Source: Thermoanaerobaculum sp.
GTDB taxonomy: Bacteria; Acidobacteriota; Thermoanaerobaculia; Multivoradales; UBA5704
Length of the DNA: 64,000 nucleotides
Reading direction: 5' to 3'
Assembly: GCA_021154885.1 (NCBI GenBank)
Contig: JAJKHS010000041.1
Coordinates: 66,441-130,440, forward strand
In this document: piece after piece, positions 29,931 to 61,126 of the stretch
Numbering within the stretch: position 1 is the stretch's first letter
How the letters are laid out: each line of letters starts with the position of its first letter
Notes under the pieces: generated by a model
Databases searched by the model: none
Seen by the model: the letters and a program-made list of their open reading frames with translations, nothing else
Told to the model about the DNA's origin: nothing
Made by a program: the position numbers and the translations under genes

Positions 29931-30590
29931 TCAGGCGTGCTTGGCTACCCAATCCGCTGCACAGTTCAAGTATTCCGGTATCGGCATCCTGGCAATGTCC
30001 TCCCTGACGTCGTTCTCTGGAATGCCTTCCGCGAGTCTCGCCTCGAAAAGACTGGTCGTGAAGTCGTTGAACAGGAACCAGATGACCTTGGGGTAGGGAG
30101 CCTCCCGCAGGCCCACCGTTTCGTAAAACCAGTCGCGGACAGCGCGCACGACTTCTTCAGGCTTATTGCGATGGCTTTTGATGTCAACCCCGGACATGTC
30201 GGACAGGGCCGCTTTGAAATCGTACGCCTCCTTCTCCAGAATCAGACACTTCTTGCTTCTCATGAATTCTGGTCCATGCTGGCGCGATCCATAGTCGATA
30301 CCAAGCTCGAACGGCATGTTCATGCGGTAGAGCTCGCGGGCTCGCGCAGCTTTCAGGCGCGAAAGGTCGTGTATGCTGAATTTGGACTGCCGGATCAGCT
30401 CGCAGATCTTGTCGAGCCGGTTCTCTCCGGAATCCGACCGCTCGGAGGCAATTCTGGGACGATAACCCAGGTATACGATAGTAAAAAGGAGGGGACGGAG
30501 AAGGGCCAGGTACTTGTCGTCAAACGGGCAGTTGACGAAGACGTTCAATTCATAGCCATCGATCGCGCCAGCAAGCTCGGCGCTGTTCAC
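29931..30590 (-). CDS. Hypothetical protein (219 aa) in a low-GC islet
   Basis: The coding region has about 55% GC against roughly 70% in the flanks. The N-terminus is VFVNCPFDDKY...SKFSIHDLS. It overlaps the upstream DUF2188 gene by 4 nt. Confidence 0.5.
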   Translation of the reverse strand: MNSAELAGAIDGYELNVFVNCPFDDKYLALLRPLLFTIVYLGYRPRIASERSDSGENRLDKICELIRQSKFSIHDLSRLKAARARELYRMNMPFELGIDYGSRQHGPEFMRSKKCLILEKEAYDFKAALSDMSGVDIKSHRNKPEEVVRAVRDWFYETVGLREAPYPKVIWFLFNDFTTSLFEARLAEGIPENDVREDIARMPIPEYLNCAADWVAKHA

Positions 30591-30820
30591 CTTTCATCTT
30601 TCGGAGGGTTGGGGTCGCTCCCGTAGGAGTCCTTGCTACGGATCATCCCGTCGCGCCCATGCACATAGAGCTCAGAGCCTTGATTCTTACTGATCTTACG
30701 CCCGTAGGTAACAGCTTCCCTCTGGGTCTCGAATCGCCGGGTGGCGTGGGTGGAGCCCCCTTTCTTCACGCTCCACCCCCCATCGGGATGAGGAACGACG
30801 TGCTGTGAGTTCTTGGACAT
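30587..30820 (-). CDS. DUF2188-family small protein
   Basis: The sequence MSKNSQHVVPHPDGGWSVKKGGSTHATRRFETQREAVTYGRKISKNQGSELYVHGRDGMIRSKDSYGSDPNPPKD matches DUF2188. Confidence 0.7.
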   Translation of the reverse strand: MSKNSQHVVPHPDGGWSVKKGGSTHATRRFETQREAVTYGRKISKNQGSELYVHGRDGMIRSKDSYGSDPNPPKDER

Positions 30821-30994
30821 GGTTCTCTCCTTCGTCTGCTTTGGAGGGCTGCCGGACGGGGAGCCTCCCAGACGAAGTTTAGCAGATCTCGGCATCGGTC
30901 CGGCGAGCAGGGAGTAGCAAGGGAGTAGCGGCGCCTCCTGGCCTCCCGACCTCGTTTTGAGGTAAGATGGTTAGCTAAGAAGCTATCCAACCGG

Positions 30995-33900
30995 GTGCGA
31001 TCCCGGATCCAGTCGGGCTCTTCGGTCTGCGAAGGGGGACGCGTGAACGCCAAGAAGACTCTGGTGGGTTGTCTGTTCCTCTGCCTCGGGCTGGCGGCTC
31101 GGAGCGATGCGCAGACGGTGACGCTCCAAGCGGTGGCCGACGCCTCGCTGCGCCAGGGCTCGGCGAACCAGAACCGCGGCGGCGATCCCACCCTGCAGCT
31201 CGCCGGGGACGGCCGTGTCCTCCTGCGCTTCGACCAGGCCGCCATCGCGGCGGCGGTCGGCTCCGGACGGCTGGTCTCCGCCTCCCTGGAGCTGTTCGTC
31301 CACTCGGCGAGCGGCAGTTGGGGCTCCGGCGGCCGGCCCATCGAGGCCCACCGCGCGACCGCGGACTGGACCGAAGCGGGGGTCACCTGGAACTGCGCGG
31401 TCGACACCAATCCCGCCAACGGCAAGCCCGACTGCGCCACCCGCTGGGACGGCGGCACCTTCGACGACGACGCCTCCGACTCGATCCTCGAGACCTCCGC
31501 CGACCACGTCTGGCTGCCCTTCGACGTCACGGCGGACGTCGCCACGTTCCTGACCGGGACGCCCAATCAGGGCTGGCTGATCGTGAAGGCGGACGACGAT
31601 CAGAGCGGCAAGGCGGACTACGGCTCCCGCGAGGGGATCGCGGCGGAGCGCCCCCGGCTGGTGCTGCTGGTGGAGAGCGCGGCGCACGATTCGGTGCCGC
31701 CGTCGCTCGCCATCACCTCGCCCGATCAGCCGATCCTGGTCAACCAGCCGGCGCCCACCGTGGTGGTGGAGTATGCGGACGGCGGCTCGGGCGTGGACCT
31801 CGCCACTCTTCAGGTGCTGGTCGACGGGCAGGACATCACCGCGAGCTGCGCCACTGGGCCGCAGTCGGCGACCTGCCATGCGCCCACCCTGGCGGCGGGC
31901 AGCCACGCCGTTCAGGCTCGTTTGAAGGACCGCGCCGGCAACGCCGCGCAGGCGAGCGCCGCCTTCCAGCTCCTGCTCGGCCCGGGACCCCACCTGGTGA
32001 CCTTCCAGACCGTGGGGGACACCTATATCCGAAAGGGCGACGCGAACAAGAACTTCGGCGCCGAGCCCATCCTGCGCCTGCGCCAGAGCGGGCAGAACCG
32101 CGCCCTGGTGCAGTTCGACTCGCAGAGCCTCGCCACGGCGCTGACCGGGGCGACGGTGGTTTCCGCCTCGCTCGAGCTGCACATCAAGAAGAACGGCCGC
32201 AACTGGGGGAAGACGGGGCGCACGATCGACGCCCACCGTCTGACCACCGCCTGGACGGAGACCGGGGCCACCTGGAATTGCGCGAACGACGCCAACCCGA
32301 CGAACGGCAGTCCGGATTGCGCCGCGCAGTGGGCCGGCGGCGGCTTCGCGGCGACCCCGACCGCCAGCGTGCTCCACACCCGCGACCTCGCGGGCTGGGT
32401 GCGCTACGACGTCACCGCCGACGTGGCCGCCTTCACCAGGGGCACCGCGGACTTCGGCTGGCTGCTCAAGAAGACGGAGGAGAACAAGAGCGGCCTGGTG
32501 GAGTACGACTCGCGGCAGGGAACGACGGGCAATGCGCCGCGGCTGGTGGTGGTGTTCACCACGCCGAGCGGCGGCGGGGACACCACGCTGCCGACGGTGG
32601 CGATCACCGCTCCCGCCGAGGGGAGCTTCGTCGCCAGCCCCACGCCCACCGTGGTGGCGACGTATTCGGACACCGGCTCGGGCGTCGATCCGGCGAGCGT
32701 CCGGCTCGTCGTCGACGGAGTGGACCGCACGGCCCAGGCGCAGGTGACGGTTTCGGGGCTCACCTTCACGCCGGCGGCGCCGCTGGCCGAGGGAGCTCAC
32801 ACGTCTCAGGTCACGGTCAAGGACCGGGCGGGCAATGCGGCGCAGGCGACGCGCGGGTTCACGACGGATACGGTGGCGCCGGTGGTCGGGCTCACCCTGC
32901 CCGCCTACGCGAAGGCCTTGCCGTTGGTGGTCAACGGGACGGTGTCCGACACGGATCCGGCCGTCCAGGTGGTGGTCAACGGCGCGCCGGCCACGGTGAC
33001 CGGGAGCACGTTCCAGGCCGCTCTCGTCCTGCTCGAGGGGGCGAACCCGGTTTCTGTGATCGCCATGGATCGCGCGGGCCACCAGGGGACGGCCTCCGGC
33101 TCGGTTATCCTCGACCAGCGGCCGCCTGCTCTCCGGCTCGAGACGCCGTCGCCGAACCAGGTGTTCAACCGTCCGGCGGCGCGGGTGGCCGGGACGGTCA
33201 GCGACGAAAACGGCATCGCGACGCTACAGGTGAATGGCGTGGCGGTTTCTCCGGCCGCCGACGGCGGTTTCGAGACCTCGGTCCCCCTGTCCGAGGGAGC
33301 GCAGACGATCACGGTCGCCGCCACCGACGTGGCGGGCAACCGCCGTGCTCTCGACGTTGCCGTAACGCGTCTCACCCTTCCGGAGGTGACCATCACTGCG
33401 CCGGCCGACCTCGGCACCCTCGCGGCCACCACGGTCATGGTGAGGGGTGCGGTGAGCAGCCCGGGGCTGGCGGTGGCTGTCAACGGTCTGCGGGCCACGG
33501 TCTCCGGAACCGACTTCTCGGTGGAGATCCCACTCGTCGAAGGGGGGAACATCATCACGGCGGTCGCCACGGCGGCGGATGGCAGGTCGGGGAGCGCCAC
33601 CATCAACGTGGTGCGCGACCTGACGCCTCCCCACCTCTCGATCGACCAGCCGCGCGCCGGCGCTTCAGTGCGCGCGGCGGCGGTCACCGTGGCGGGTCTG
33701 GTCAACGACATCGTCGCGGGGACCGTCAATGCGCCCCAAGCGCAGGTGAAGGTCAACGGCCGGCCGGCCCGGGTGGCCAACCGCTCGTTCCTGGTCGAAG
33801 GGGTGCCGCTGCAGGCCGGCGACAACACCTTGACCGCCGAGGCGGTGGACGCCAGCGGCAACGTCGCCCAGGTTTCCATCGTCGTGCGGCGCGAGACGGG

Positions 33901-36100
33901 CGCCTCGGCGCGCCTCGTCGCGGTGTCCGGCGACGGCCAGCAGGGGGTGATCGGCATGGCGCTGCCGGCACCGCTGGTGGCCGTAGCGCAGGATACGGCC
34001 GGACTGCCGGCGGTGGGCACGACCGTGGTGTTCGAGGTGCGGGGCAACGATGGTTCCCTCGATGGCGGCCGGCGGCGGCTGGCGGTTGTCACCGACTCCG
34101 CGGGCCGGGCAGCCGTCCACTTCACCCTCGGCACCCGTGCCGGAGTGGGCAATCAGGTGGTGGTGGCCTCGGCCGCCGGCTACGGCGAGCCGGTCGCCTT
34201 CCTCGCGTCGGCGCTGGCGGGCGAGCCGGCCGCCATCGTGGTGGACGCCGGCGACCAGCAGGTGGGAGTCGCCGGCCAGCCACTGCCTCGCCCGCTGATC
34301 GCTGTCGTCACCGACAGCGGGCACAACCGCCTGCCCGCCATCGCCGTGCATTTCTCGGTGGTCAACGGCGCCGGGCGTCTCCCCAACGGGCTCGACCAGA
34401 TGGTGATCGCCACCGATGGCGACGGCCGCGCCATCACGCCGTTCACCCTCGACCCTCAGGAGGGAGTCGCCAACAACACGGTGGTGGCACGCATCGAGGG
34501 ACTGCCCAACGGTCCGCTGGCGAGCTTCACCGCCTCGGGGCTGTCGGCCGGCGATCCGGCCCGGACCTCGATCAGCGGCATCGTGCTCGACAATCAGAAC
34601 GACCCGATCCCGGGAGTCACGATCCGCATTCTCGACACTTCGCTGACCGCGCAGACCGACGCGCGCGGCGCCTTCAGGATCAGCGGCGCGCCGGTGGGCA
34701 CGGTGCGCATGCTGGTGGACGGCTCGACGGCGGCGCGTCCCGGTTCGTGGCCTGACCTCGAGTACACCGTCACCACCATCCCCGGGCGCGACGTCACGGT
34801 GAACATGCCGATCTTCCTGCTGCCCCTCGATCTCGCCCACGGGCTGGCGGTCGACGAGACGCACGGCGGCACCCTCACCCTGCCGGACCTGCCGGGTTTC
34901 GCGCTGGTGATCGCTCCAGGCTCGGTGACCTTCCCCGGCGGCAGCCGCTCAGGGGTGGTGAGCGTGACCGCCGTGCACTCCGACAAGGTACCCATGGTGC
35001 CCAACTTCGGCCAGCAGCCGCGGTTCATCGTCACCATCCAGCCGGCCGGCGCCCGCTTCGAGCCCCCGGCACGGCTCTCGCTTCCCAACGTCGAGGGGCT
35101 GGCGCCGGGCCAGGTGACGGAGATGTATTCGTTCGATCACGACCTCGGCCATTTCGTGAGCATCGGCCCGGCCACGGTGAGCGATGACGGCTCCACCATG
35201 GTGGCCAATCCGGGGGTCGGGATCGTCAAGGCCGGCTGGCACTGCGGCGGCAGCTCGTCGAGCTCGGGGACGCCCCATCACTGCGCGGATTGCCAGAAAT
35301 GCGAGAACGACTGCTGCGTTCCCGACCCGGCCAAGAACAACCAGGGCTGTGACGACAAGGACAAGTGCACGGTCGACGACAAGTGCAACAACGGCAACTG
35401 CAAGGGCCAAACGGTGAAAGTGACGATCACCAGGGCGCCGTCCTTCATCTGTGCCGGCAACAGCAAGCCGGTCGCGGCGACGATCACGCCGGCCAGCCGG
35501 ACCATCACCTGGAAGAGCCTGCAGCCAGCGAACCTCACCGTCTCCGGCGGCACCTCGGGGACGGCCACCGGAGTGAAGAAGGGGTCGGCCACGATCCAGG
35601 CGAGCGACTCGCAGACCGACTGCAATCAGGATTCCCGTTCGATCCGGGTGGTGGACATGAGCGACTTCAACGGCATGTTCGGCGAGAAGAGCTGGTGCGT
35701 GGCCAGCCTCGGGAACCCGCTGGCCGTCGCCGCCTGTGCGCGGGCGCGGCAGATCGCCGGCCAGGTCGTCGCCTGGCAACTGAGAACGTTCCACGGGGCT
35801 TGCGCGAAAATCAACGGCGACCCTGAGGGAACGATGGCGGACGCGGGCCGGCACGCCTACCTGTCCTGCGCCCTGCACAGCGACAGTTTGACGTCGCTCT
35901 ATGCGGACACGATCCTCAACCTGCACGAGCAGGATGCGTCGCAGGACTGCCTGAGCCACGAGCAGGACGTCAACAACAACGAGGTCGGCAAGTCGAACGC
36001 GTCATCCGGGGTCGACTGCGCGCAGGCGGCGCTCCAGTCGCTCGCCGCTGGCCGCCTGCAAATCAACAATCCGCCGCCGGCGGGGACCTCATGCCCATGA
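30995..36100 (+). CDS. Giant secreted multidomain protein (1701 aa)
   Basis: A GTG at 31042 gives a signal peptide VNAKKTLVGCLFLCLGLAARSDA. Two tandem N-terminal DNRLRE-like modules of about 200 aa each end in ...WTEAGVTWNC and ...WTETGATWNC. They are followed by at least eight bacterial Ig-like domains, a carboxypeptidase-regulatory-like domain, a Cys-rich linker and an unassigned C-terminal domain of about 230 aa. Confidence 0.8.
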   Translation: MRSRIQSGSSVCEGGRVNAKKTLVGCLFLCLGLAARSDAQTVTLQAVADASLRQGSANQNRGGDPTLQLAGDGRVLLRFDQAAIAAAVGSGRLVSASLELFVHSASGSWGSGGRPIEAHRATADWTEAGVTWNCAVDTNPANGKPDCATRWDGGTFDDDASDSILETSADHVWLPFDVTADVATFLTGTPNQGWLIVKADDDQSGKADYGSREGIAAERPRLVLLVESAAHDSVPPSLAITSPDQPILVNQPAPTVVVEYADGGSGVDLATLQVLVDGQDITASCATGPQSATCHAPTLAAGSHAVQARLKDRAGNAAQASAAFQLLLGPGPHLVTFQTVGDTYIRKGDANKNFGAEPILRLRQSGQNRALVQFDSQSLATALTGATVVSASLELHIKKNGRNWGKTGRTIDAHRLTTAWTETGATWNCANDANPTNGSPDCAAQWAGGGFAATPTASVLHTRDLAGWVRYDVTADVAAFTRGTADFGWLLKKTEENKSGLVEYDSRQGTTGNAPRLVVVFTTPSGGGDTTLPTVAITAPAEGSFVASPTPTVVATYSDTGSGVDPASVRLVVDGVDRTAQAQVTVSGLTFTPAAPLAEGAHTSQVTVKDRAGNAAQATRGFTTDTVAPVVGLTLPAYAKALPLVVNGTVSDTDPAVQVVVNGAPATVTGSTFQAALVLLEGANPVSVIAMDRAGHQGTASGSVILDQRPPALRLETPSPNQVFNRPAARVAGTVSDENGIATLQVNGVAVSPAADGGFETSVPLSEGAQTITVAATDVAGNRRALDVAVTRLTLPEVTITAPADLGTLAATTVMVRGAVSSPGLAVAVNGLRATVSGTDFSVEIPLVEGGNIITAVATAADGRSGSATINVVRDLTPPHLSIDQPRAGASVRAAAVTVAGLVNDIVAGTVNAPQAQVKVNGRPARVANRSFLVEGVPLQAGDNTLTAEAVDASGNVAQVSIVVRRETGASARLVAVSGDGQQGVIGMALPAPLVAVAQDTAGLPAVGTTVVFEVRGNDGSLDGGRRRLAVVTDSAGRAAVHFTLGTRAGVGNQVVVASAAGYGEPVAFLASALAGEPAAIVVDAGDQQVGVAGQPLPRPLIAVVTDSGHNRLPAIAVHFSVVNGAGRLPNGLDQMVIATDGDGRAITPFTLDPQEGVANNTVVARIEGLPNGPLASFTASGLSAGDPARTSISGIVLDNQNDPIPGVTIRILDTSLTAQTDARGAFRISGAPVGTVRMLVDGSTAARPGSWPDLEYTVTTIPGRDVTVNMPIFLLPLDLAHGLAVDETHGGTLTLPDLPGFALVIAPGSVTFPGGSRSGVVSVTAVHSDKVPMVPNFGQQPRFIVTIQPAGARFEPPARLSLPNVEGLAPGQVTEMYSFDHDLGHFVSIGPATVSDDGSTMVANPGVGIVKAGWHCGGSSSSSGTPHHCADCQKCENDCCVPDPAKNNQGCDDKDKCTVDDKCNNGNCKGQTVKVTITRAPSFICAGNSKPVAATITPASRTITWKSLQPANLTVSGGTSGTATGVKKGSATIQASDSQTDCNQDSRSIRVVDMSDFNGMFGEKSWCVASLGNPLAVAACARARQIAGQVVAWQLRTFHGACAKINGDPEGTMADAGRHAYLSCALHSDSLTSLYADTILNLHEQDASQDCLSHEQDVNNNEVGKSNASSGVDCAQAALQSLAAGRLQINNPPPAGTSCP

Positions 36101-36834
36101 GAGCCGCGAGATCCAACTCGGGAGCTTCCGCCGGCTTTTGGCTCGCCGCCATGATGGTGATGCTTCTGTCGGCCACGGCCATCGATTGCGCCGACCCGCA
36201 GACGCCGTCCGCCGATCCCATGCCCACGATGCTGCGGGGACTGCGGATCGGAATGTCCGAGCAGGAGCTCCGGACGGCTCGGCCAGCGGCTGAGAAGTTC
36301 GTGTTCCTCGAGGAGCGGGAGTCCGAGAAGAAAGATCCCAATCCCCTCTACGTCGAGAGCTTCTCCGGATCGCTATTCTTCGACACGGGCATGTACCTGT
36401 TCTGTCAGCACAAGCTGTGCGAGGTGTCGCTGACCGCCATCGGATCGGGGGATCGGTTCGCCGACCGCCAGGCCAAGGTGTTGCAGGGAGCCCTGCGCAA
36501 GTGGGGGCAGAACCCGGAGCGCTTCCTCAACCTGGGTGCAGGAAGCCTGGACCCGGCCGGGCAGATGTCGCTGGAGCATTCGAAGGTCGAGCCGCGCAAG
36601 CGGGGCGCCCTGCTCTGGACGCTCGGCAGCCTCAAGGTGGCCGCCACGTTCGCGCCGGACGAGGGGAAGCGCGAACGGCCCGCCGAGCTCGGCGTCACCA
36701 TCGCCGCCCCGCAGCTCCTGCCCAAGGATCAGCACCGGATCTTCTTCGAATCGCTGGCGCCGGTGCGGTCCGCGTCGGACGCCCGGCTCTTCGCTCTGCT
36801 GGAACGGCGGGCCGAGCCTCCTCTCTTCGATTGA
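36091..36834 (+). CDS. Small secreted hypothetical protein (247 aa) overlapping the 3' end of the upstream giant gene
   Basis: It overlaps the upstream stop by 10 nt. A hydrophobic N-terminal segment FWLAAMMVMLLSATAIDC is present. No known domain is recognised. Confidence 0.5.
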   Translation: MPMRAARSNSGASAGFWLAAMMVMLLSATAIDCADPQTPSADPMPTMLRGLRIGMSEQELRTARPAAEKFVFLEERESEKKDPNPLYVESFSGSLFFDTGMYLFCQHKLCEVSLTAIGSGDRFADRQAKVLQGALRKWGQNPERFLNLGAGSLDPAGQMSLEHSKVEPRKRGALLWTLGSLKVAATFAPDEGKRERPAELGVTIAAPQLLPKDQHRIFFESLAPVRSASDARLFALLERRAEPPLFD

Positions 36835-36846
36835 GCCCGAGGAACC

Positions 36847-39800
36847 ATGGCCATGGGAAAGGCAATTTGGATCTGGATCGCGCTGCTGGCCGGCACCCTG
36901 CCCCTGGGGGCGCAGACGCCGACATCGCTGGAGCTGCGCTCGCCGAAGAGCACCCTGGCGCCGGGGGAGGTCGTACAGCTCCGGCTCATCGCCACCCTCT
37001 CGAACGGCAGTCAGCAGGACGTCACGACCGCCCCCGGCGTCTCCTACTCCGCGTCCTTCCTGGGCGAGGAAAATCCGTTGCTCTCCGTGGACGATGCCGG
37101 CAGAGTCACTGCCGAGGCCCCGGGCTCACAGGTTGTCTACGGGTTCTATCAGGACCTCTTCGCCGGGATCGTGCTCTCGGTGATCAGCGGCGTGGATTCC
37201 GACGGCGACGGCATGCCGGACGCCTGGGAGCTCCAGTACGGACTGAATCCTGCCGACCCGAGCGACGCCGCCTCCGACGCGGACGGCGACCACCTCTCCG
37301 CGCTGGCTGAATTCCGCGCCGGGACCGACCCCCGCAACCCCGACACCGACGGTGATGGCATCCCGGACGGGGAGGAGGTACAGGCCGGTCTCCAGCCGCT
37401 GAAAGCCGACACGGACGGCGACGGCCTGAGCGACGGCGAGGAGAGACGGATCGGCACCGATCCGTCCAGGCTGGACACCGACGGCGACGGCATCGCCGAC
37501 GGCGACGAGGTCGCGGCGGGCACCGATCCGCTGACCCCGCAGCCGCCGGTCGATGGCCGGGAGATTCTGGCGCTCGATGAGCACTGCATGGTGAGCGTGC
37601 TCAATCGCACGGCCAAGGTCCAGCCAGGCGGCGGGTGGGTGTTGCCCAACGTGCCGGCCAACCAGGGGCCGGTGCGGGTGCGGGCCACTTGCGTCGAGGA
37701 TGGCGTCACCCGCTCCGGCCAGTCCGACCTGATCGACGTTCCCCCCAACGGTATCCTGCGGGTGGCGGAGATCCGCTTCCAGGATCCCACGCCGATCCCG
37801 GCGAGCCTGGCGCTGACCGCGCCACAGACGCAGCTCACCGGGGTGGGACAGACGGTCCAACTGGCGGTACGCGCCGCGTTCGCGGGCGGCGCCACCGTCG
37901 ACGTCACCGCTGGCTCACGCGGCACCAGCTACCGGTCCAGCAATCCGGCCATCGCCAGCGTCGATGCCGGCGGCCTGATCACCGCCCGGTTGAGCGGCGT
38001 CGTGCTGGTGAGCGCTCTCAACGAGGGGGCGCTCGGCGTCGTCCGCGTGCAGGTCCTCGCTGCCGCGGACAGCGACGGCGACGGCCTGCCCGACGACTAT
38101 GAGATCGCCCACGGTCTCGATCCCAACGACCCGGCCGACGCGCTCAAGGACCACGACGGCGACGGCCTGTCGACCCTCGATGAGTTCCGTGGCGGGCTCG
38201 ATCCTTTCAACGCGGACACCGACGGCGACGGCTTGCTCGACGGCGACGAGCTCAACCGCTACCACACCAATCCGCTGCTCCGCGACACGGACGGCGACGG
38301 GATCTCCGACGGCCTGGAGATCCAGAGCGGCAGCGATCCGCTCGATCCCGCGAGCTTCAACCTGGCACCGATCGTCCAGAGCCTGACGGTGCAGCCGGCG
38401 ACGCTCAACATTACCTTCAACACGGCGTTGGGGGAGGCCTCGCAGCGGCTGGACGTCAAGGCGCGGCTGATCGACGGCACGGTGCTCGACGTGCGCCGCC
38501 GCCGCTACGGCACCAGCTACAGCTCCAGCGATCTCACGGTGGCTAACTTCAGTGGTGAGGACGGCGTGGTCTTCGCCGGCCAGGACGGTACGGCCATCGT
38601 CACCGTCAGCCTCGGCAGCCGCTCGGCCACCGTGCAGGTGGTGGTGACGAGCTTTTCGCCGCAGCCTCTCTCGTTCCTGCCCCTGCCGGGCTTCGCCAAC
38701 GGCGTGGACGTCGCCAGCCCGTACGCCTACGTGGCGTCGGGCCGCGCCGGCCTGGTGGTGGTCGACGCCTCCAACCCGCAGGCGCCGTTCGTCGCCGCGA
38801 CGCTGGCGCTGCCCGGCAACGCCAATGCCGTGAAGGTGGCGGGGGGCTATGCCCACGTGGCCGCCGGCTCGGCCGGCCTGGTGATCGTCGACGTGCGCAA
38901 CCCCAGGTCGCCGGCTGTCGCCGGCCGCATCGACACGCCCGGCGATGCCACCGACCTCGTCCTCCGGGACGGGCGCGCCTATGTCGCCGACGGCGCGAGC
39001 GGCCTGTTCATCGCCGACGTCAGCAATCCCGCGGCCCCCCTGCGGCTGGGCTCGATTCCCACGGCGGGCACCGCCCGCGGCGTCGACACCGATGGGCGCC
39101 TGACCGTAGTGGCGGAGGACTTCGCCGGGTTGGAGGTGATCGACGTCAGCGATCCGGCGGCGCCGTTCCTCCTGGGCTCGACGGCCACCCGGCCGGACGG
39201 CAGCTCCCATGCCGCCGCCGTCGTGCTGCGCGGCCACTATGCCTACGTGGCCGACGGCGCCAGCTTCAACCTCGGCGGGCTGCGCACAGTCGACCTCTCG
39301 GAGCCGGGCACGCCGGTGGTGGTGGGCGCGAGCAGCGACTCTTTCTCTCTGACCTCCCTGGTGTTGGACGGCCCCATCGCCCTCGCCGCGGACGTTTTCT
39401 TCGTCAACGCCGTTCCCATCTTCAACGTCGGCGGCACCACGCCCGCTTTCTCGGCGGAGGTGGACTTCTCCCAAGCCCCGAGCTTCCGCGACGACAACGG
39501 CAACGGCGTCGCCATCGACAACGCCGGGCTGGTCTTCATGGTGGGCGCCCGCGGGCAGATCACCGACAACGGAACCTTCGGCGATACGGGGCTCCACATC
39601 GGCCGCTACAAGATCCTGCAGGACTTGGCCGGCATTCCGCCGGAGGTGAGCCTCACGGCGCCGGCGGACGGCTCGTCGGCCCCCGAGCGCAACCCGCTCC
39701 TGGTGCGCGCCAGCGCCACGGACGACGTCCAGGTGGCCTCCGTCCGCTTCCTGATCGACGGCGTCAGCGTGGCCGAGGTCTTCAAGGCTCCCTACTTGGC

Positions 39801-42135
39801 CACCGTGCGGGTGCCGGCGGGAGTGCCGTCGTTCAAGCTGACCGCGGTGGCCACCGATCTCGGCGGCAATCAGAGCGAATCCGCTCCGGTCGTCGTGACC
39901 GTCATCCCGGACGACAAGCCCCAGGTGTCGTTCCTGGCGCCGGTGGCCGGGGCCCGGTTCATCGAGGGCGCGCCGGCGGAGATGGCGGCGACGGCGAGCG
40001 ACGACGTGCAGGTCGACTCCGTCGAGCTGCTGGTCGACGGCGTCTCGCAGGGCGTCTTCGGGCCACCCTACCGGACGACCTTCAGCGTGCCGGTGGGCGT
40101 CACCCAGACGACGCTGACGGCCGTGGCCACCGACAGCGCGGGCCAGACGGCGACGGCGACGCTGGTGGTGGGGATCGATCCCGATCAGCCGCCCACGGTG
40201 GCCGTGCTGTCTCCCACCGCCGGAGCCAACGTGATCGAGGGGAGCCGGCTGGAGGTGGCGGTGGGCGCCATCGACGACGTCGGCATCGATCATGTCCACC
40301 TGGACGCCGACGGCCAGCCGGTGGGCGATGCCTTCGGGGCTCCCTACCTCTTCTCGCTCCGGGCGCCGGCCGGCGCTCCGGAGCTGCGGCTGACCGCCAC
40401 CGCTCAGGACACGCTGGGACACACGGCGACCGCTGAGATCGTCGTGAACGTCATTCCCGATCCGCTCACCACAGCGGTGGGCCGGGTCGTCGACTCGAGC
40501 GGCGTGGCGGTGGCCGGCGCCGCGGTCGACTGCCTGGGCGTGTCGGGAACCACTGACGCCGCGGGGGCGTTCTCGGTGCCCGGAGTCCCCACCGTCTCGG
40601 CCGTCTTCTGCGAAGCGCAGGCGGCCAGGGCCGGCGGCGTGCTCGCGGGCAACTCGGCCGCCGTGCCGCCGCTACCGGGCGGCACGACCGCGGTCGGGGA
40701 CATCGTGATCTCGTTGCACCTGCTCTACCTTGGCTCCGGCGGCGGTAGCCAGAGAAGCCCGGGCCGGCTGCTGGTTCTGGATGACACGGGAGCCGGCCGC
40801 CTCATCGACTGGAGCCGGCCCGTTCTTCCCGTGGGGCTCTCCGGGCTCACCTTCGACGGCGACGGGACGCTCTGGGCCTCGACTCAGCCGGAGATTCCAA
40901 TCCCCCAACTCGTCGCCCGGAGCCGCGCCAAGTCCGCCAACCTCGGCGTGCAGCAGGGCACGAGCCAGCTCCTGCGCTTCGATCCTGAGACCGGCGCCGT
41001 CCTCGCCACCCTCGGGCCGTTCCTCCTGGAGAACGAGGAGATCCCGATCGGGCTTCAGGACCTCACGTTCGCCCCGGCCACGGGCACCCTCTATGCCTTG
41101 AGCGCCGGCTTCGTGGACCGGAAAATCGTCGCCCTCGACCTCTCGACGCAGGTGGCGCGGGTCCTCAACCCGAGCCTGCCGTTCGAAGCCTCCGGCCTGG
41201 CCGTGGGGCCAGACGGCCAGCTCTATCTGTTCATCTCGGGATTCACGAACGAGCTGTGGACCGTCGATCCGGCGACCGGCGCGATTGTCGACCAGCAGTC
41301 CTTGACCGGCACCGTGGGAGCCTCGGCCGGGGGCGGCGAGCTCGGCGGCATGACGCTCAAGCCGGGTACTCGCACGTTCGTGCTGACCTCGCCTGCCGAC
41401 GGCAGGGCCCTCTACGAGCTCGACCTCGGGACACTGGCAATCACCGAAGTCTCCAACCCCGCGGGCGACCTCGCCGGCGCCGGTCTCCGGGCCCTGGCTT
41501 TCCGGCCGCTGGGCAGCGCGGCGGGCACGGTGACGACCGTGCGCGGTCTGGTGGTCGATCCCGATGGGCAGCCGGTGGCGGCAGCGGACGTGGTCTCGCT
41601 GGGAGCCGCCACCACCACCGGAGCCGATGGCCGCTTCGAGATGCCCGGCCTCACGGTGCGCACCGGCCGCGTGCGGGTGGAGGTGAGCCTGCCCAGCTCT
41701 TCGCCGTCGCCTCTCGCCGGTTCGAGCGTCCTGACTCCTGGCGTGCCGCCGGTCGCGGGCGGCGTCACCGACCTCGGCACGATCATCCTCGGCGCCCCGG
41801 TCTGCGTTACCGGCTTCTTCCACGCGAACCGCTGCGTCCAGGGTCCGGTCGGCGGCACCTTCGACCTCTATCAGGAGGACCGCACGGGCCAGCTCTCGCT
41901 CGTCGATCACGTGCTGACCGACCCCACCGGCCGCTTCTGCGCGATGCTGCGGCGCAACTTCTTCTATGTCGCACGCCGCGAGGACGTCGCGTGTTCCTGC
42001 GGCACGGTCTCGTCCTGCCACGCCTTCCTCGCCGTGACGGACCCGGAAGCCTCGGGTGCTTGCGGCGATCCGGCCGCCGCGTGCCAGGACCTGGGAACCC
42101 TCAACCTCAACTGCGACTTTTTCTGCGGCTCGTAG
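36847..42135 (+). CDS. Giant secreted protein (1762 aa) with TSP3 calcium-binding repeats, LVIVD repeats, multiple Ig-like domains and a Cys-rich C-terminus
   Basis: The signal peptide is [25 protein letters not shown] Big_2 domain follows. Repeated DxDGDGxxD (TSP3) motifs occur twice (37.2-37.5 kb and 38.1-38.3 kb). [12 protein letters not shown] and [12 protein letters not shown] motifs (LVIVD repeats) are present. Confidence 0.8.
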
Positions 42136-56253: not shown

Positions 56254-56437
56254 TAGCTGCGACCTCAGGCGTCCCGACGAAGCTCATAGGAGGTGAGACC
56301 GTGTCGGACCTAGTCAGGGGTGGCGTGAGCCGCCGCCTCGTCTTCCCAGCCTCCCTGTCTACTTTTGCGCCCTGCCTGTTTTCCGGGCTCATGGAGCCCG
56401 TGTTTTCAACGCCTTGCCAGATTCAGGAGGTAACATC

Positions 56438-59400
56438 TTGTTGAGCCTCGCCCGAGGTAGCATCGTTCTGATCGCCGTGCTCACCTGCCTCTCGCCCGCG
56501 GGAGCGGTTTCCGCTCCCCCCCTCTTGGCCAGGCCCTCGCTCGGCAACATGGTCGATGCCCGGGTCAATTACAAGCAGGCGTACGAACGGGCCACCGCCG
56601 TGCGTGGCGCGCGGGTGGCCTCCGGCCTCTCCGAGGCCCGTACCCAGGCGGCATCCATCGCCACCGCCATCGCCAAGCACCGGGCCTCGCAGCCCGGTCT
56701 CGAGGTGAGGCTGTCGAACCTGACCGGCGCTCCGTCGGCGGTACGCAGCAAGATCGGCCCGCTGACCGGGCCCGCCCCGGGCCGCAGCAGCGAGGACATC
56801 GTCCGCGACTTCCTGCGCCAGTACGGCGACGTCTACGGCCTGTCGAGCGCCGACGCCGCCGACCTCGTCGCCCTGGGGGACAGCCCCGGCGGCACGAGCG
56901 GCCTGCGCATGCTCCGCCTGGAGCAGCAGATCGACGGCCGTCCCGTGTTCCAGAGCGAGACCCGCTTCCTCCTCGACCGTGAGGGGCGGCTGATGAAGAC
57001 CCTCGGCCTGATGGTGCCGCATGCGCGCGCCTTCGCCGGGCGGGTCGATCCGGCGAGCCTGATGCTGCCGGAGCAGGCCGTCGTCCGCCTGCTCGAGGCC
57101 GACGGCAAGACCGCCGTGGCTTCGTCGTTCGCCGTCGCCGCCGAGGAGAACGGACGGATGGTGCTGTCGGAGAACGACGGCTTCGTCGCCGGCCCCATCG
57201 CCGCCCGCCAGGTGCTCTTCCCGCTCGCCCCCGGCCTGCTGGTGCCGGCCTGGTCGCTGGTGGTGTTCACCGAGGGCGATCAGGACTGGTACGCCATCGT
57301 CGACGCCGAGACCGGCGACGTGCTGTGGCGCAAGAACATCCGCGACTACGCCTCGGCTCACGACGCCCGCTTCCGCGTCTACGTGCAGGCCGACGGCACG
57401 ACGCCGGCCGACAGCCCGGCGCCCCAGTCGCCGGACACCGCGGTGCCCGGCGGCGGCACTCAGTACCCGGAGATCGCGCCCACGGTCGTCAGCATGCACA
57501 CCGCCATGGACCCGGTCGCGAGCCCGAACGGCTGGATCGACGATTGCCCGGCCGGCGGCTGCACCGCCAACGAGACCCAGACCCTGGGCAACAACGCGGT
57601 CGCCTGCCTGGACCGGACGGTCGGCGGAGCGAACACCAACGCCTGCGATACGGATGTCAACAGCGTGCTCGATGGCAGCGGGAAGCCGATGGGCAACCCG
57701 GACTCCAACAGCCGCAACCGCGACTTCCTCGGCACCACGCCGCGCGACTTCCAGACCGGCTTCATCCCGCCGCCGCAGGGCGGCAACCCGGAAGCCGGCC
57801 AGTCGGCGACCAACGCCGTGACGGCCACGTCGGCCGCCGAGAACAGCTTCCGCCGCGGCGTCGTGACCCACCTCTTCTACGTCGTCAACTGGTATCACGA
57901 CCAGCTCTTCAAGCTCGGCTTCGACGAGGCCGCGGGCAACTTCCAGCGCACCAACTTCAGCGGCATGGGCCTGGGCAACGACCGCGTCAATGCCGACGCG
58001 GAGGACGGCGGCAGCACCAACAACGCCAACTTCTCGACGCCGCCCGACGGCACCTCGGGACGGGCGCAGATGTACCGCTTCACGGGTCCCACCATCGACC
58101 GCGACGGCGACCTCGACCAGGAAGTGCTGATGCACGAGCTGACGCACGGCACCAGCAACCGGCTGGTGGGCAACGCCGCCGGCCTCAACTGGGATCCGGC
58201 GCGCGGCATGGGCGAGGGCTGGAGCGACTTCGTGGCCCTCTCCCTGCTCAACAACACCAACGCCGACAATCCCGTGGGCCAGTACGCGAGCGGCGCCTAC
58301 GCCACCTACAAGTTCCTGGGTTTACTCGACAACTACGTCTACGGCATCCGCCGCTTCCCCTACACCCCCAATCACGCCATCAACCCGATGACCTGGGCCG
58401 ACGTCGACGACGTCACCTACAACACGAGCGGCGGGATCCCCGAGACCCCAATCCCCAATTTCAGCCTGGCCGGCGCCATGGAGGTCCACAACTCGGGCGA
58501 GATCTGGGCCTTGACTCTGTGGGGGGTGCGCTCCCGGATCATCCTGGATCCGGTAGGGGCCAACGGCAACGTGCCGGCCGGCAACCACACGATGCTTCAA
58601 CTGGTCATCAACGGGCTCAAGATGACGCCGATCAACCCGAGCTTCACCGACGCCCGTAATGCCATCATCGACGCCGACTGCGCCACCAACGCCTGCGCCA
58701 ACGAGCAGTCGATCTGGGACGGCTTCGCCGACCGCGGTCTGGGCTACGGCGCCCATGCCGATTACAACGTCATCGGCCGCTACGTGGCGAGCCACGAGGG
58801 CGTCCACGAGTCGTTCACCTCGCCGGTGCTCGACGTGGTCGATCCCTTGACCGACGTCACCATCGACGACAGCGCCGACAACAACAACGGCGCCGTCGAT
58901 CCGGGCGAGGCGGTCAAGCTCACGGTCAAGCTGACCAACCCCTGGCGCGGCGCGGGCAAGGCCGTCACCGGCGGCACGGCGACCCTCACCACCTCCACCC
59001 CCGGCGTGACGATCTACGACAACACGGCGAGCTTCGGCGCCATCGCGCCGCAGGGCACGGCCGTCGCCGGTGACAGCTTCACCATCACCGTGGATCCGTC
59101 GGTCGTCTGCGGCAGCGCCATCGACTTCACGCTTTCCACCACCTCGAACATCGGCACCACCTCCACCACCTTCCGCCTGCGGGTGGGCAACCGCAACGGC
59201 ACCGACGCGGTCGTGACCTACACGGGCGATCCCAATCCGGACCTCACCATCACCAACGGCCGCCCCCGCGGCGTCTTCCATCAGATCAACGTCACCGACG
59301 ACTTCGAGATCGCGGACGTCAATTTCCGCCTCGACAGCGTCACCCACCCCGGCGTCGGCGACCTGACCGCCATGCTGCGCTCGCCGGGCGGCATCGGCGT

Positions 59401-61126
59401 CGACATGGTCATGTTGATCGACGGTCTCAACGACCTCGGCGGCACCAGCATCGTCAACATGGTGATCGACGACGACGTGGTGCCCGGACCGACGACCGAC
59501 ATGGTCGAGGCGACGACAGCCGACGCGCCGTACACCCGGTCGTGGCTGCCGGTCTACAACTCGCCCTGGGCGGCCCTCGTCAATCCGGCTCTGCCGGCGG
59601 ACCCCGTGGGCAACCTGACGCCTTTCAACGGCTTGAGCACCAAGGGAACCTGGTCGACGCTGATGGCCGACGTGTTCACGGCGTCTCAGGGTGGCACGGA
59701 CGGCAACGGCACCTTCAACGCCTGGTCGATCCTCGTCACGCCCGTCCACTTCGACTGCGTGGCCTTCGTGGCGTCGGCCGCCGTGACGGCGACCAAGACG
59801 GTGACCGGCACCTTCCGGGTCGGCGGCACCGTGACCTACACCGTGACGCTCACCAACAACGGCACCGCCAACCAGGCTGACAACGCCGGCCACGAATTCA
59901 CCGACACCCTGCCGGCCGGCCTGACGCTGGTCAGCGCCACCGCCACCAGCGGCACGGCGGCGACCGCGGGCAACACCGTCAACTGGGACGGCTCGCTCGC
60001 ACCTCTGGGCGGCAGCGTCACCATCACCATCACCGCCACCGTCAACGCCGGTGCTCAAGGCACGACGATCAGCAACCAGGGCACCGCGTCATTCGACAGC
60101 AACAACGACGGCACCAACGACGCGACTGCCTCCACCGACGATCCGGGAGTCGGCGGCGCCACCGACCCGACGGTCTTCGCCGTCGCCAACGCCGCGGTGA
60201 CGGGCACCAAGACGGTGAGCGGCACCTTCAAGACCGGCGGCACCGTCACCTACACCATCGTGCTCTCGAACTCGGGCTCGTCGGCCTCGCCCGACAACCC
60301 CGGCAACGAGCTCACCGACGCCGTGCCCGCCGGCCTGACGGTCGTCAGCGCCACCGCCACCAGCGGCACGGCGGCCAACGCGGGCAACAACGTCACCTGG
60401 AACGGCAGCATCCCGGCAGCCGGCAGCGTGACCCTCACCATCACCGCCACGGTCAACGCCGGCGCGCAGGGGACCACGCAATGCAACCAGGCGAGCTTCG
60501 CCTTCGACGCCGACCTGAACGGCACCAACGAATCGACGGGCACGACGGATGATCCGGCGGTCGGCGGTGCCAACGACCCGACGTGTCTGGCGGTCCAGGG
60601 AGTGGCTCTCTCGGCCACCAAGACCGCGAGCGGCACCTTCGTGACCGGCAGCACGGTGACCTACACGGTGGTCATCTCCAACACCGGCAACACGGCCTCG
60701 CTCGACACCCCCGCCAGCGACGAGTTCACCGACGTCCTGCCGGCGTCGCTGACGCTGGTCAACGCCACGGCGACCTCGGGCACGGCGACGCCGAGCGGCA
60801 ACACCGTGACCTGGAACGGGACCATCCCCGCCGGCGGCACCGTGACCATCACCATCACCGCCACCATCAACGTCGGCTTTGCGCAGACCACGGTCAGCAA
60901 CCAGGGGAGAGTCTCCTTCGACTCCGACCTCGACGGCACCAACGACACGACGGTCCAGACCGACGACCCGGCGGTCGGCGGCGCCAGCGACCCGACGACG
61001 TTCGTGGTCTCCCCGGCCACGGCGGCCGAGGTGCCGACGCTCTCCGAGTGGGGCCTTGCTCTCCTCGGTCTCAGCCTGCTCCTCGCCGGCTGGAGCGTGA
61101 TGCGCCGCCGGACGGAGCGGGCTTAA
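56438..61126 (+). CDS. Secreted M36 (fungalysin-type) zinc metalloprotease with P-domain-like region, four DUF11 repeats and an IPTL-CTERM sorting tail
   Basis: AGGAGG precedes a TTG start 7 nt downstream. The signal peptide is LLSLARGSIVLIAVLTCLSPAGAVSA. HELTHGTSNRL is followed by GEGWSDF, the M36 signature. Four repeats of about 130 aa each contain T-x-T-x-T, TVTYT and DDPAVGGA motifs. The C-terminus is IPTLSEWGLALLGLSLLLAGWSVMRRRTERA. Confidence 0.85.
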   Translation: MLSLARGSIVLIAVLTCLSPAGAVSAPPLLARPSLGNMVDARVNYKQAYERATAVRGARVASGLSEARTQAASIATAIAKHRASQPGLEVRLSNLTGAPSAVRSKIGPLTGPAPGRSSEDIVRDFLRQYGDVYGLSSADAADLVALGDSPGGTSGLRMLRLEQQIDGRPVFQSETRFLLDREGRLMKTLGLMVPHARAFAGRVDPASLMLPEQAVVRLLEADGKTAVASSFAVAAEENGRMVLSENDGFVAGPIAARQVLFPLAPGLLVPAWSLVVFTEGDQDWYAIVDAETGDVLWRKNIRDYASAHDARFRVYVQADGTTPADSPAPQSPDTAVPGGGTQYPEIAPTVVSMHTAMDPVASPNGWIDDCPAGGCTANETQTLGNNAVACLDRTVGGANTNACDTDVNSVLDGSGKPMGNPDSNSRNRDFLGTTPRDFQTGFIPPPQGGNPEAGQSATNAVTATSAAENSFRRGVVTHLFYVVNWYHDQLFKLGFDEAAGNFQRTNFSGMGLGNDRVNADAEDGGSTNNANFSTPPDGTSGRAQMYRFTGPTIDRDGDLDQEVLMHELTHGTSNRLVGNAAGLNWDPARGMGEGWSDFVALSLLNNTNADNPVGQYASGAYATYKFLGLLDNYVYGIRRFPYTPNHAINPMTWADVDDVTYNTSGGIPETPIPNFSLAGAMEVHNSGEIWALTLWGVRSRIILDPVGANGNVPAGNHTMLQLVINGLKMTPINPSFTDARNAIIDADCATNACANEQSIWDGFADRGLGYGAHADYNVIGRYVASHEGVHESFTSPVLDVVDPLTDVTIDDSADNNNGAVDPGEAVKLTVKLTNPWRGAGKAVTGGTATLTTSTPGVTIYDNTASFGAIAPQGTAVAGDSFTITVDPSVVCGSAIDFTLSTTSNIGTTSTTFRLRVGNRNGTDAVVTYTGDPNPDLTITNGRPRGVFHQINVTDDFEIADVNFRLDSVTHPGVGDLTAMLRSPGGIGVDMVMLIDGLNDLGGTSIVNMVIDDDVVPGPTTDMVEATTADAPYTRSWLPVYNSPWAALVNPALPADPVGNLTPFNGLSTKGTWSTLMADVFTASQGGTDGNGTFNAWSILVTPVHFDCVAFVASAAVTATKTVTGTFRVGGTVTYTVTLTNNGTANQADNAGHEFTDTLPAGLTLVSATATSGTAATAGNTVNWDGSLAPLGGSVTITITATVNAGAQGTTISNQGTASFDSNNDGTNDATASTDDPGVGGATDPTVFAVANAAVTGTKTVSGTFKTGGTVTYTIVLSNSGSSASPDNPGNELTDAVPAGLTVVSATATSGTAANAGNNVTWNGSIPAAGSVTLTITATVNAGAQGTTQCNQASFAFDADLNGTNESTGTTDDPAVGGANDPTCLAVQGVALSATKTASGTFVTGSTVTYTVVISNTGNTASLDTPASDEFTDVLPASLTLVNATATSGTATPSGNTVTWNGTIPAGGTVTITITATINVGFAQTTVSNQGRVSFDSDLDGTNDTTVQTDDPAVGGASDPTTFVVSPATAAEVPTLSEWGLALLGLSLLLAGWSVMRRRTERA

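Follow-up and report, generated by a model that had tools for sequence, protein, structure and literature searches.

Introduction

The sole characterized relative of the protein domain considered here is BteO, a type VI secretion system (T6SS) effector of Bacteroides fragilis GA3 (PDB 9uu0; He et al., PNAS 2025, PMC12541434). BteO toxicity is confined to the periplasm, and a groove of helices alpha3-alpha6 binds several OmpA-family proteins at their C-terminal domains. Neither peptidoglycan hydrolase nor amidase activity could be detected for the purified protein, and its expression altered muropeptide composition. Each of six substitutions (R143A, H144A, H167A, E168A, D187A and D191A) abolishes toxicity and lowers OmpA9 binding. 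Neutralization of the effector falls to BtiO, which has a signal peptide and folds like OmpA-C. The same paper calls BteO 'unique' and makes no mention of Pfam, DUF6973, Rhs or polymorphic toxins (PMC12541434). A second described group is that of the Sec-dependent polymorphic toxins, for which ZU5 has been listed as a processing domain (Zhang et al., Biol Direct 2012, PMC3482391). Here, we analyze a locus within a 64,000-nucleotide stretch of a Thermoanaerobaculum sp. genome (hereafter the window; GenBank assembly GCA_021154885.1, contig JAJKHS010000041.1, positions 66,441 to 130,440). The locus consists of three consecutive genes: A, which encodes a giant exported carrier protein of 1701 amino acids; S, which encodes a small exported protein; and B, which encodes a second exported giant.

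An original prediction, made from the letters of the window alone, proposed that the C-terminal end of A (the tail) and the product of the next gene form a polymorphic effector domain and its cognate partner. We find that the tail is very probably a divergent toxin domain of the DUF6973/BteO family on a polymorphic carrier. We further consider it likely, from homology, tail variability and the linkage and replacement of S, that A and S make up a polymorphic toxin-immunity pair that depends on Sec and has periplasmic immunity.

Results

A DUF6973-like domain at the C terminus of A

The last part of A, initially described as about 230 residues (1470-1701) with no recognizable family, includes an immunoglobulin (Ig)-like Big_2 module, after which 156-161 residues remain. 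These residues do have a family: their match to DUF6973 (PF22322) is sub-threshold in the window protein itself and solid through its homologues. An exhaustive phmmer search with the tail returned 18 cluster representatives at E<=0.001, 17 of which are credible after dropping P0015. That protein (529 amino acids, phmmer E=6e-8) consists of seven near-identical repeats of about 70 residues without the family motif, and we attribute its match to low complexity or repeats; the protein resembles the translation of a DNA repeat. The phmmer E values from the tail to proteins that pass the PF22322 cut-off range from 4e-10 to 1e-68, and homologues that score above it include P0020 (77 bits), P0021 (70 bits) and P0019 (44 bits). 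A profile search added 37 further family members. Identity between the tail and other members is about 25-35%, and a word-indexed homology search with the tail matched nothing but a fragment of that same tail (100% identical).

The family connects the tail to BteO. A phmmer search of the PDB with the tail gave no match; searched with the subfamily profile A1, the PDB yielded one solved structure, 9uu0_A (MBP-BteO), at E=1.9e-7, in an alignment spanning the RH...HE...DxxNN motif. The aligned BteO fragment of 9uu0 scores 53.7 bits on PF22322; thus, BteO itself is a DUF6973 protein. The core motif of DUF6973, (D/N)A-x-R/x-H ... H-E ... D-x-x-N-N-x-x-G, is present in the tail as D1616, A1617, R1619, H1620, H1644, E1645, D1658, N1661, N1662 and G1665. 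The motif columns are invariant or >=90% conserved in alignments A1 and A4: H, E, D, N-N and G are invariant in both, and for the first residue of the H-E pair, invariance holds in A1 and >=90% conservation in A4. Furthermore, five of the six residues essential for BteO toxicity are kept in the tail. BteO R143, H144, H167, E168 and D191 correspond to window R1619, H1620, H1644, E1645 and D1658, respectively, and D187 aligns with S1654 and is not conserved. The alignment numbering was checked against the residues named in the BteO paper (PMC12541434), with Q148, Q183 and D187 found as expected. An AlphaFold2 model of the tail is all-helical (predicted local distance difference test (pLDDT) 84.4, predicted template modeling score (pTM) 0.80), and its best structural matches in BFVD are DUF6973 proteins, with a probability of 1.0.

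The carriers on which the domain was found are diverse and comprise Rhs proteins, eCIS_core proteins, the T6SS effector BteO, giant Ig-rich proteins, a lipoprotein and phage proteins. It forms the C-terminal end of the large multi-Ig proteins P0006, P0008, P0010 and P0019, occurs in small proteins too, and in P0021 sits after eCIS_core (formerly DUF4157). In eight members (P0026, P0029, P0030, P0031, P0033, P0036, P0040 and P0041) it comes straight after the Rhs 'DPxGL' end, where toxin domains of polymorphic systems are canonically found. Remote homology thus places the tail in the family of a characterized toxin that is also carried on Rhs and eCIS_core proteins. Judged by these sequence matches, BteO is one member of a broad family of putative toxins on Rhs, extracellular contractile injection system (eCIS), phage and Sec-dependent carriers, a connection that is new.

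Two further observations concern the breadth of the family. DUF6973-like folds occur in phage proteins of BFVD (A0A6J5T7E5, A0A6J7WY85, A0A5Q2W5P5 and A0A6J5KNR3), among them a 1438-residue protein and a 900-residue 'PcfJ-like' protein; the family is therefore also virus-borne. In a metagenome-assembled genome (MAG) of Verrucomicrobiae (JAIBCM010000003.1; locus L017:5001-6702), a standalone DUF6973 protein of 146 amino acids (P0023) has no signal peptide. After it come, in tandem, two paralogous proteins (89 and 86 amino acids), likewise without signal peptides, and then a CHAP-domain protein.

By analogy with BteO, the target of the tail might be an OmpA-like peptidoglycan anchor, an assignment that we make tentatively and that draws on homology at roughly 25-30% identity. 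The helical groove lined by R1619/H1620, H1644/E1645 and D1658 would then bind a cell-envelope target. For BteO, the target is the C-terminal, peptidoglycan-binding domain of proteins of the OmpA family, whose binding weakens the envelope.

Alternatively, the tail could be a toxin that works as an enzyme, with H, H-E, D and N-N as a catalytic or metal center acting on an envelope substrate, and with the OmpA binding of BteO as substrate recognition or a secondary effect. In a comparison of 37 very diverse sequences, drawn from different phyla and carriers, the only invariant positions are D71, H75, E100, D113, N116 and N117, plus A72 and G120, and such polar, catalytic-type invariance is unusual for a pure protein-protein interface with host-varying targets. 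The changed muropeptide composition upon BteO expression fits an enzyme too, as does the position of the L017 family member, whose gene lies upstream of that of a CHAP peptidoglycan hydrolase, with two small genes in between. However, purified BteO was without hydrolase or amidase activity, the mutations that abolish its toxicity also reduced OmpA9 binding, and its suppression by OmpA overexpression points to stoichiometric action; the tail model, moreover, had no structural match to any enzyme fold in a Foldseek search of the PDB. We consider an enzymatic tail unlikely, and the pattern of invariant residues is a concrete reason to revisit whether the DUF6973 family is non-enzymatic.

A conserved body and a variable tail

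Related loci differ in the tail more than in the body of A, as expected of a polymorphic effector. The pre-toxin region of A (residues 1243-1416) is 85% identical to that of the window in locus L001, 84% in L002, L010 (over 18% of the region) and L012, and 82% in L004, whereas the tail is 76, 74, 55, 56 and 37% identical in L001, L002, L010, L012 and L004, respectively. For S, the corresponding values are 73% (L001), 65% (L002), 48% (L010) and 41% (L012), and S is absent from L004. The first 400 residues of B are 68, 69, 67 and 64% identical in L001, L002, L010 and L004; in L012, B lies beyond the contig end. S diverges faster than the tail, with identities falling from 73 to 24% versus 76 to 42%.

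The change from body to tail is sharp. The identity profile breaks right after GVGIVKAGWHCGG, that is, after 'GWHCGG', and identity in blocks of 25 residues drops from 1426-1450 on, no more than about 10 residues from the motif. The motif G[VFS]GIxx[AGS]GW was found in all nine carriers examined. In L004, a PKD domain stands in place of Big_2, and the tail is of another DUF6973 subtype.

The history of the tails also appears to differ from that of the bodies. The L012 tail is 63% identical to the L007 tail and about 57% identical to the window tail, although the bodies of L012 and L007 are only 45% identical. This suggests, from sequence identities, that tail types have been swapped between lineages.

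Note that the N terminus of A varies too (window 30995-32600 compared with L001:3369-, L002:822- and L004:22-). The window protein has two CBM96/DNRLRE modules, and the L001 and L002 proteins are about 300 residues shorter, with other N termini. The carrier is therefore mosaic at both ends.

The partner gene S

The gene that follows A was said to encode 247 amino acids, to overlap the stop codon of A by 10 nucleotides and to begin with a signal sequence, and all three statements hold. The overlap is exactly 10 nucleotides in the window, is again 10 in L010, and is 4 in L002, L003 and L007. The N terminus of S has positive charge followed by a hydrophobic stretch (MPMRAARSNSGASAGFWLAAMMVMLLSATAIDC; read by eye), a leader that is conserved in orthologues. 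The public call for S (P0002, 227 amino acids) starts at M21 (window 36091-36150 region) and loses the charged N-region, and the orthologues keep the longer start. The start of P0002 is probably miscalled, too late in the gene.

S is linked to one type of tail. A hidden Markov model of S detected homologues directly downstream of the tail, usually with an overlap at the stop codon, in eight independent loci (the window; L001+L008+L009; L002; L003; L005+L006; L007+L011; L010; and L012), the tails of which are 42-76% identical to that of the window. S is absent at other tail subtypes (L004, L013, L014/15 and L016). At three of these loci (L004, L013 and L014/15), the tail gene is followed or overlapped by another small gene, whose N-terminal segment is hydrophobic, signal-like or membrane-anchoring. 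The member at the tip of an Rhs protein in L018 also has a different small gene that bears a hydrophobic or signal-like N-terminal segment. In L004, the two genes after the tail are unrelated to S and encode a lipoprotein-like protein of 187 amino acids and a protein of 116 amino acids with hydrophobic, probably membrane-spanning segments. The downstream linkage proposed in the original prediction is thus borne out: S accompanies this tail type at every locus that has it and is replaced where the tail is of another type. The two checks named with that prediction, on remote homology and on variability of the C terminus, likewise support it.

Two loci have notable arrangements. In L005:10734-12724 (GCA_029261895.1, JAJDAK010000041.1), three S-like modules stand in a row after the toxin gene, as one gene of 245 amino acids and one of 418 amino acids that contains two modules; the locus is flanked by a 1677-residue Reprolysin-family giant upstream and a TSP3 giant of >3500 residues downstream. 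In L013:2025-3769, a 169-residue exported gene overlaps the toxin gene and is followed by a second A-type gene, a near-identical paralogue, indicating a tandem carrier duplication.

Searches of Pfam, NCBIfam, PHROG and the PDB with S gave no relative. A CapE match at E=0.022 was treated as noise. A likeness of S 'LRIGMSEQEL' to BamE 'IRVGMTQQQV' extended over 17 columns with a probability of 4.5% and was not supported. By these comparisons, the S family is new and without known relatives.

We regard it as reasonably probable that S is a cognate, tail-binding immunity protein in the producer's periplasm, on the grounds of its linkage, its co-variation with the tail and its export signal. Because A must cross the producer's own periplasm, the signal-peptide-bearing S is predicted to neutralize the toxin there. 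S could instead be an adaptor that helps to secrete or fold the disulfide-rich C-terminal cassette, or have no relation to it and simply be a periplasmic protein encoded in the A-B operon. Such a role would agree with the lack of similarity to BtiO, OmpA-C or any immunity family, with the fixed A-S-B order, and with the fact that S tracks host phylogeny somewhat better than tail type. However, S occurs only with this tail subtype and is replaced together with the tail even though the body and B remain alike. Its sequence changes faster than those of its neighbors, it is triplicated in L005, and it overlaps the toxin stop codon and carries an export signal. Tail linkage, fast evolution, triplication, stop overlap and an export signal are typical of immunity genes for periplasm-acting toxins, and we give the non-immunity roles a low probability.

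Layout of the locus and the carrier protein

The coordinates of the locus are given in Table 1. All three genes have coding-type third-position GC content (GC3; 0.86-0.91), and 12 nucleotides separate S from B. Protein A starts with a signal-peptide-like export signal, followed by a series of domains assigned with Pfam and NCBIfam: two CBM96/DNRLRE modules, Big_13/Big_7, five Glucodextran_B domains, CarboxypepD_reg and then the variable C-terminal cassette.

Table 1. Features of the A-S-B locus, with positions given in the window.
Feature	Position	Strand	Description and basis
Gene A	30995..36100	+	1701-aa giant exported carrier; open reading frame, GC3 0.91, Pfam/NCBIfam domains
Pre-toxin region, residues 1243-1416	34721..35242	+	Conserved, weakly ZU5-like; last part of conserved body
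Boundary motif GVGIVKAGWHCGG, residues 1407-1419	35213..35251	+	Passage from conserved body to variable tail
Cys-rich linker, residues 1417-1470	35243..35404	+	10 Cys; Cys positions, conserved across orthologues
Big_2 Ig-like module, residues 1476-1540	35420..35614	+	PF02368, 26.4 bits on isolated region
C-terminal domain (predicted toxin), residues 1546-1701	35630..36097	+	DUF6973/BteO-like, all-alpha in the model, 7 Cys
R1619-H1620	35849..35854	+	Aligned to BteO R143-H144; H invariant in family
H1644-E1645	35924..35929	+	Aligned to BteO H167-E168
D1658-V-N-N1661-N1662-E-V-G1665	35966..35989	+	Aligned to BteO D191-L-L-N-N-Q-I-G; D, NN, G family-invariant
Gene S	36091..36834	+	247-aa exported protein, predicted cognate immunity (or toxin-binding) partner; new family
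Gene B	36847..42135	+	1762-aa exported TSP3/LVIVD/Big_7 giant; Pfam domains

The Cys-rich segment noticed earlier is present as described: the string CADCQKC...GNCKG spans residues 1430-1471 (window 35282-35407), and 19 of the 28 Cys of A fall within its last 285 residues. The Cys of the linker are kept in all orthologues, and the Cys density is thus not a matter of chance. A domain scan of the isolated linker region gave no family match. The single Ig-like module expected after this segment was found as well, its Big_2 score lying above the Pfam cut-off of 22.8 bits. The segment had been placed after the last Ig-like domain, a description that needs correction, as what precedes it is not an Ig-like domain but the conserved, weakly ZU5-like pre-toxin region.

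The assignment of that region to ZU5 (PF00791) is below threshold (13.6 bits, E=0.085, cut-off 21), with weak matches in three of eight homologues. Its top four PDB profile matches are all ankyrin ZU5 domains, again weak (E=0.023-0.047). The autoproteolytic motif HFS or CxH is not conserved: only the close relatives share 'GHFVS', more distant proteins show GEFVA, NIFTN, GQYVA or MDWAT at this place, and the boundary sequence reads GW(H/G)(C/G), not CxH. The likeness to ZU5 suggests, and only suggests, release of the toxin by autoproteolysis in this region.

Gene B and the surroundings

The order of A, small gene(s) and B is kept even with a different tail type (L004 and L015). This constancy across tail types marks A and B as a conserved pair whose middle varies. 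In L001, L002, L004, L005, L008, L010 and L015, the next gene after the small one(s) is B-like. B itself has a signal peptide, TSP3 repeats, LVIVD repeats, Big_7, CarboxypepD_reg and a Cys-rich C terminus, and it may be a functional partner of A. The sole match in the genome collection was a MAG of the Thermoanaerobaculia (Acidobacteriota) with the same synteny.

Other features of the window lie outside the A-S-B unit. Directly upstream of A, on the minus strand (window 29931-30895), are genes for a DUF2188 protein (102 amino acids) and a 219-residue protein without an assigned family. The two genes fall within a region of reduced GC content (0.647 for 30001-32000, versus about 0.70 in the flanks). 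Further downstream (window 56414-61126, plus strand) lies a gene for another giant exported protein (1570 amino acids), with an M36 fungalysin peptidase, DUF11 repeats, DUF7927 and an IPTL-CTERM sorting motif.

Discussion

In the reading that we favor, A would be exported via its N-terminal signal peptide and would extend as a long stalk of carbohydrate-binding and Ig-like modules. At its end, after GVGIVKAGWHCGG, an exchangeable cassette is predicted that comprises the Cys-rich linker, one Ig module and the 156-residue, all-helical DUF6973 domain. By homology to BteO, this domain would act in the periplasm of other diderm bacteria, and the translationally coupled S would bind and neutralize it in the producer's periplasm.

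Several observations weigh against a toxin-immunity pair of this kind. At the closest loci (the window, L001, L002 and L003), the tails are 74-76% identical, no more divergent than the preceding Ig module, although the wider set of loci gives a different picture. The window protein itself scores 22.5 bits against DUF6973 (E=8.9e-5, residues 1611-1672), short of the cut-off of 27, and a Foldseek search of the PDB with the tail model returned nothing significant and did not recover 9uu0. As P0023 and its two small neighbors have no signal peptides, not all members of the family need act in the periplasm. For S, a PDB search with profile A2 gave no match, hhalign against OmpA-C/Pal gave a probability of 0.1%, and the AlphaFold2 model, built from five sequences, was unusable (pLDDT 41). 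S of L012 is 41% identical to that of the window versus 32% to that of L007. S therefore does not group as the tail does, and we rejected a simple joint transfer of tail and S as one cassette; rapid divergence of S within lineages fits better. No orphan toxin or immunity cassettes lie downstream of the window pair, where B follows directly after S. T6SS, type V secretion system (T5SS), Rhs and eCIS genes were not found near the locus, the flanks of which are housekeeping genes. Lastly, this reading requires a Sec-exported protein of 1701 residues to place a domain in the periplasm of another cell.

The least probable of the explanations considered, and in our view a very unlikely one, is that the DUF6973 tail is a self-directed anchor that holds A, and perhaps B, in the envelope on the producer's own OmpA-like or peptidoglycan-associated proteins, with S as a periplasmic chaperone or regulator of attachment: the stable synteny of A, small gene and B amid housekeeping flanks with no delivery system nearby, the conservation of the tail among close orthologues, and the report that BteO binds OmpA C-terminal domains rather than catalyzing a reaction would all suit an anchor, but this domain also stands at the tips of Rhs and eCIS_core proteins and acts as a T6SS effector, divergence of the tail and S far outpaces that of the flanks and both are swapped in L004, which fits conflict, and a periplasmic C-terminal anchor is hard to square with a Sec-exported protein of extracellular-looking domains.

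The toxin-plus-immunity kind of system and the DUF6973/BteO family are already known. What is new is the carrier, the S family and the breadth of the family to which BteO belongs. As judged from its predicted domains, the carrier is a Sec-exported giant Ig/CBM protein with a GWHCGG boundary and a Cys-rich/Big_2 linker. A more far-reaching interpretation would make DUF6973, including BteO, a widespread superfamily of envelope toxins with a catalytic or metal H/H-E/D/N-N center, would make A and S, possibly with B, an undescribed delivery route in Acidobacteriota that is independent of secretion systems, and would give S a different mode of neutralization or a different target; we think this improbable.

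These findings are of importance in several respects. The locus and its homologues place the 'unique' 2025 effector BteO within the DUF6973 family. The locus represents a Sec-dependent carrier without a dedicated injection machine nearby, and it has a clear boundary motif at the start of its variable region. Furthermore, the variants of tail and S on near-identical bodies form a natural series that is suited to tests of specificity.

Comparison with known systems

The members of the family on Rhs proteins (the eight listed above) and on eCIS_core (DUF4157) proteins (P0021 and P0034) likewise have the motif DAxRH...HE...DxxNNxxG at their extreme C terminus. They differ from the window protein in their carriers and delivery routes, and their domain has no N-terminal extension and few of the extra Cys; the Big_2/Cys-rich linker is missing as well. 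Their neighboring genes are unrelated to S.

The polymorphic toxins surveyed by Zhang et al. (PMC3482391) differ from the locus in some features and resemble it in others. In the window, the ZU5 assignment is sub-threshold and the CxH/HFS catalytic motif is not conserved; ZU5 in the survey lies at the N terminus of Rhs proteins, whereas the ZU5-like region of the window lies just before the putative toxin. Orphan cassettes are absent from the window locus, and a text search of the survey for the motif found neither the toxin family nor its motif. The likeness lies in the architecture: Sec- or type II secretion system (T2SS)-dependent polymorphic toxins also have a signal peptide, a long repeat stalk and a variable C-terminal toxin, with an adjacent gene that co-varies with the toxin. 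In both cases, furthermore, one toxin domain is reused on Rhs, Photorhabdus virulence cassette (PVC)/eCIS and T6SS carriers.

A further comparison is that with BteO and BtiO. BteO is small, has one N-terminal transmembrane helix and is delivered by the T6SS, whereas the window domain tips a 1701-residue Sec-exported multi-Ig protein, with a Cys-rich linker and Big_2 before it. The window subfamily also differs in that its domain contains seven Cys and an additional helical part at the N terminus, S has no sequence similarity to BtiO or OmpA-C, and the host is an acidobacterium-like soil organism rather than Bacteroides. Despite these differences, the two systems share the DUF6973 domain, helical in the window model as in BteO, with 9uu0 matched by the window subfamily profile, and in both the adjacent partner gene encodes a signal-peptide protein.

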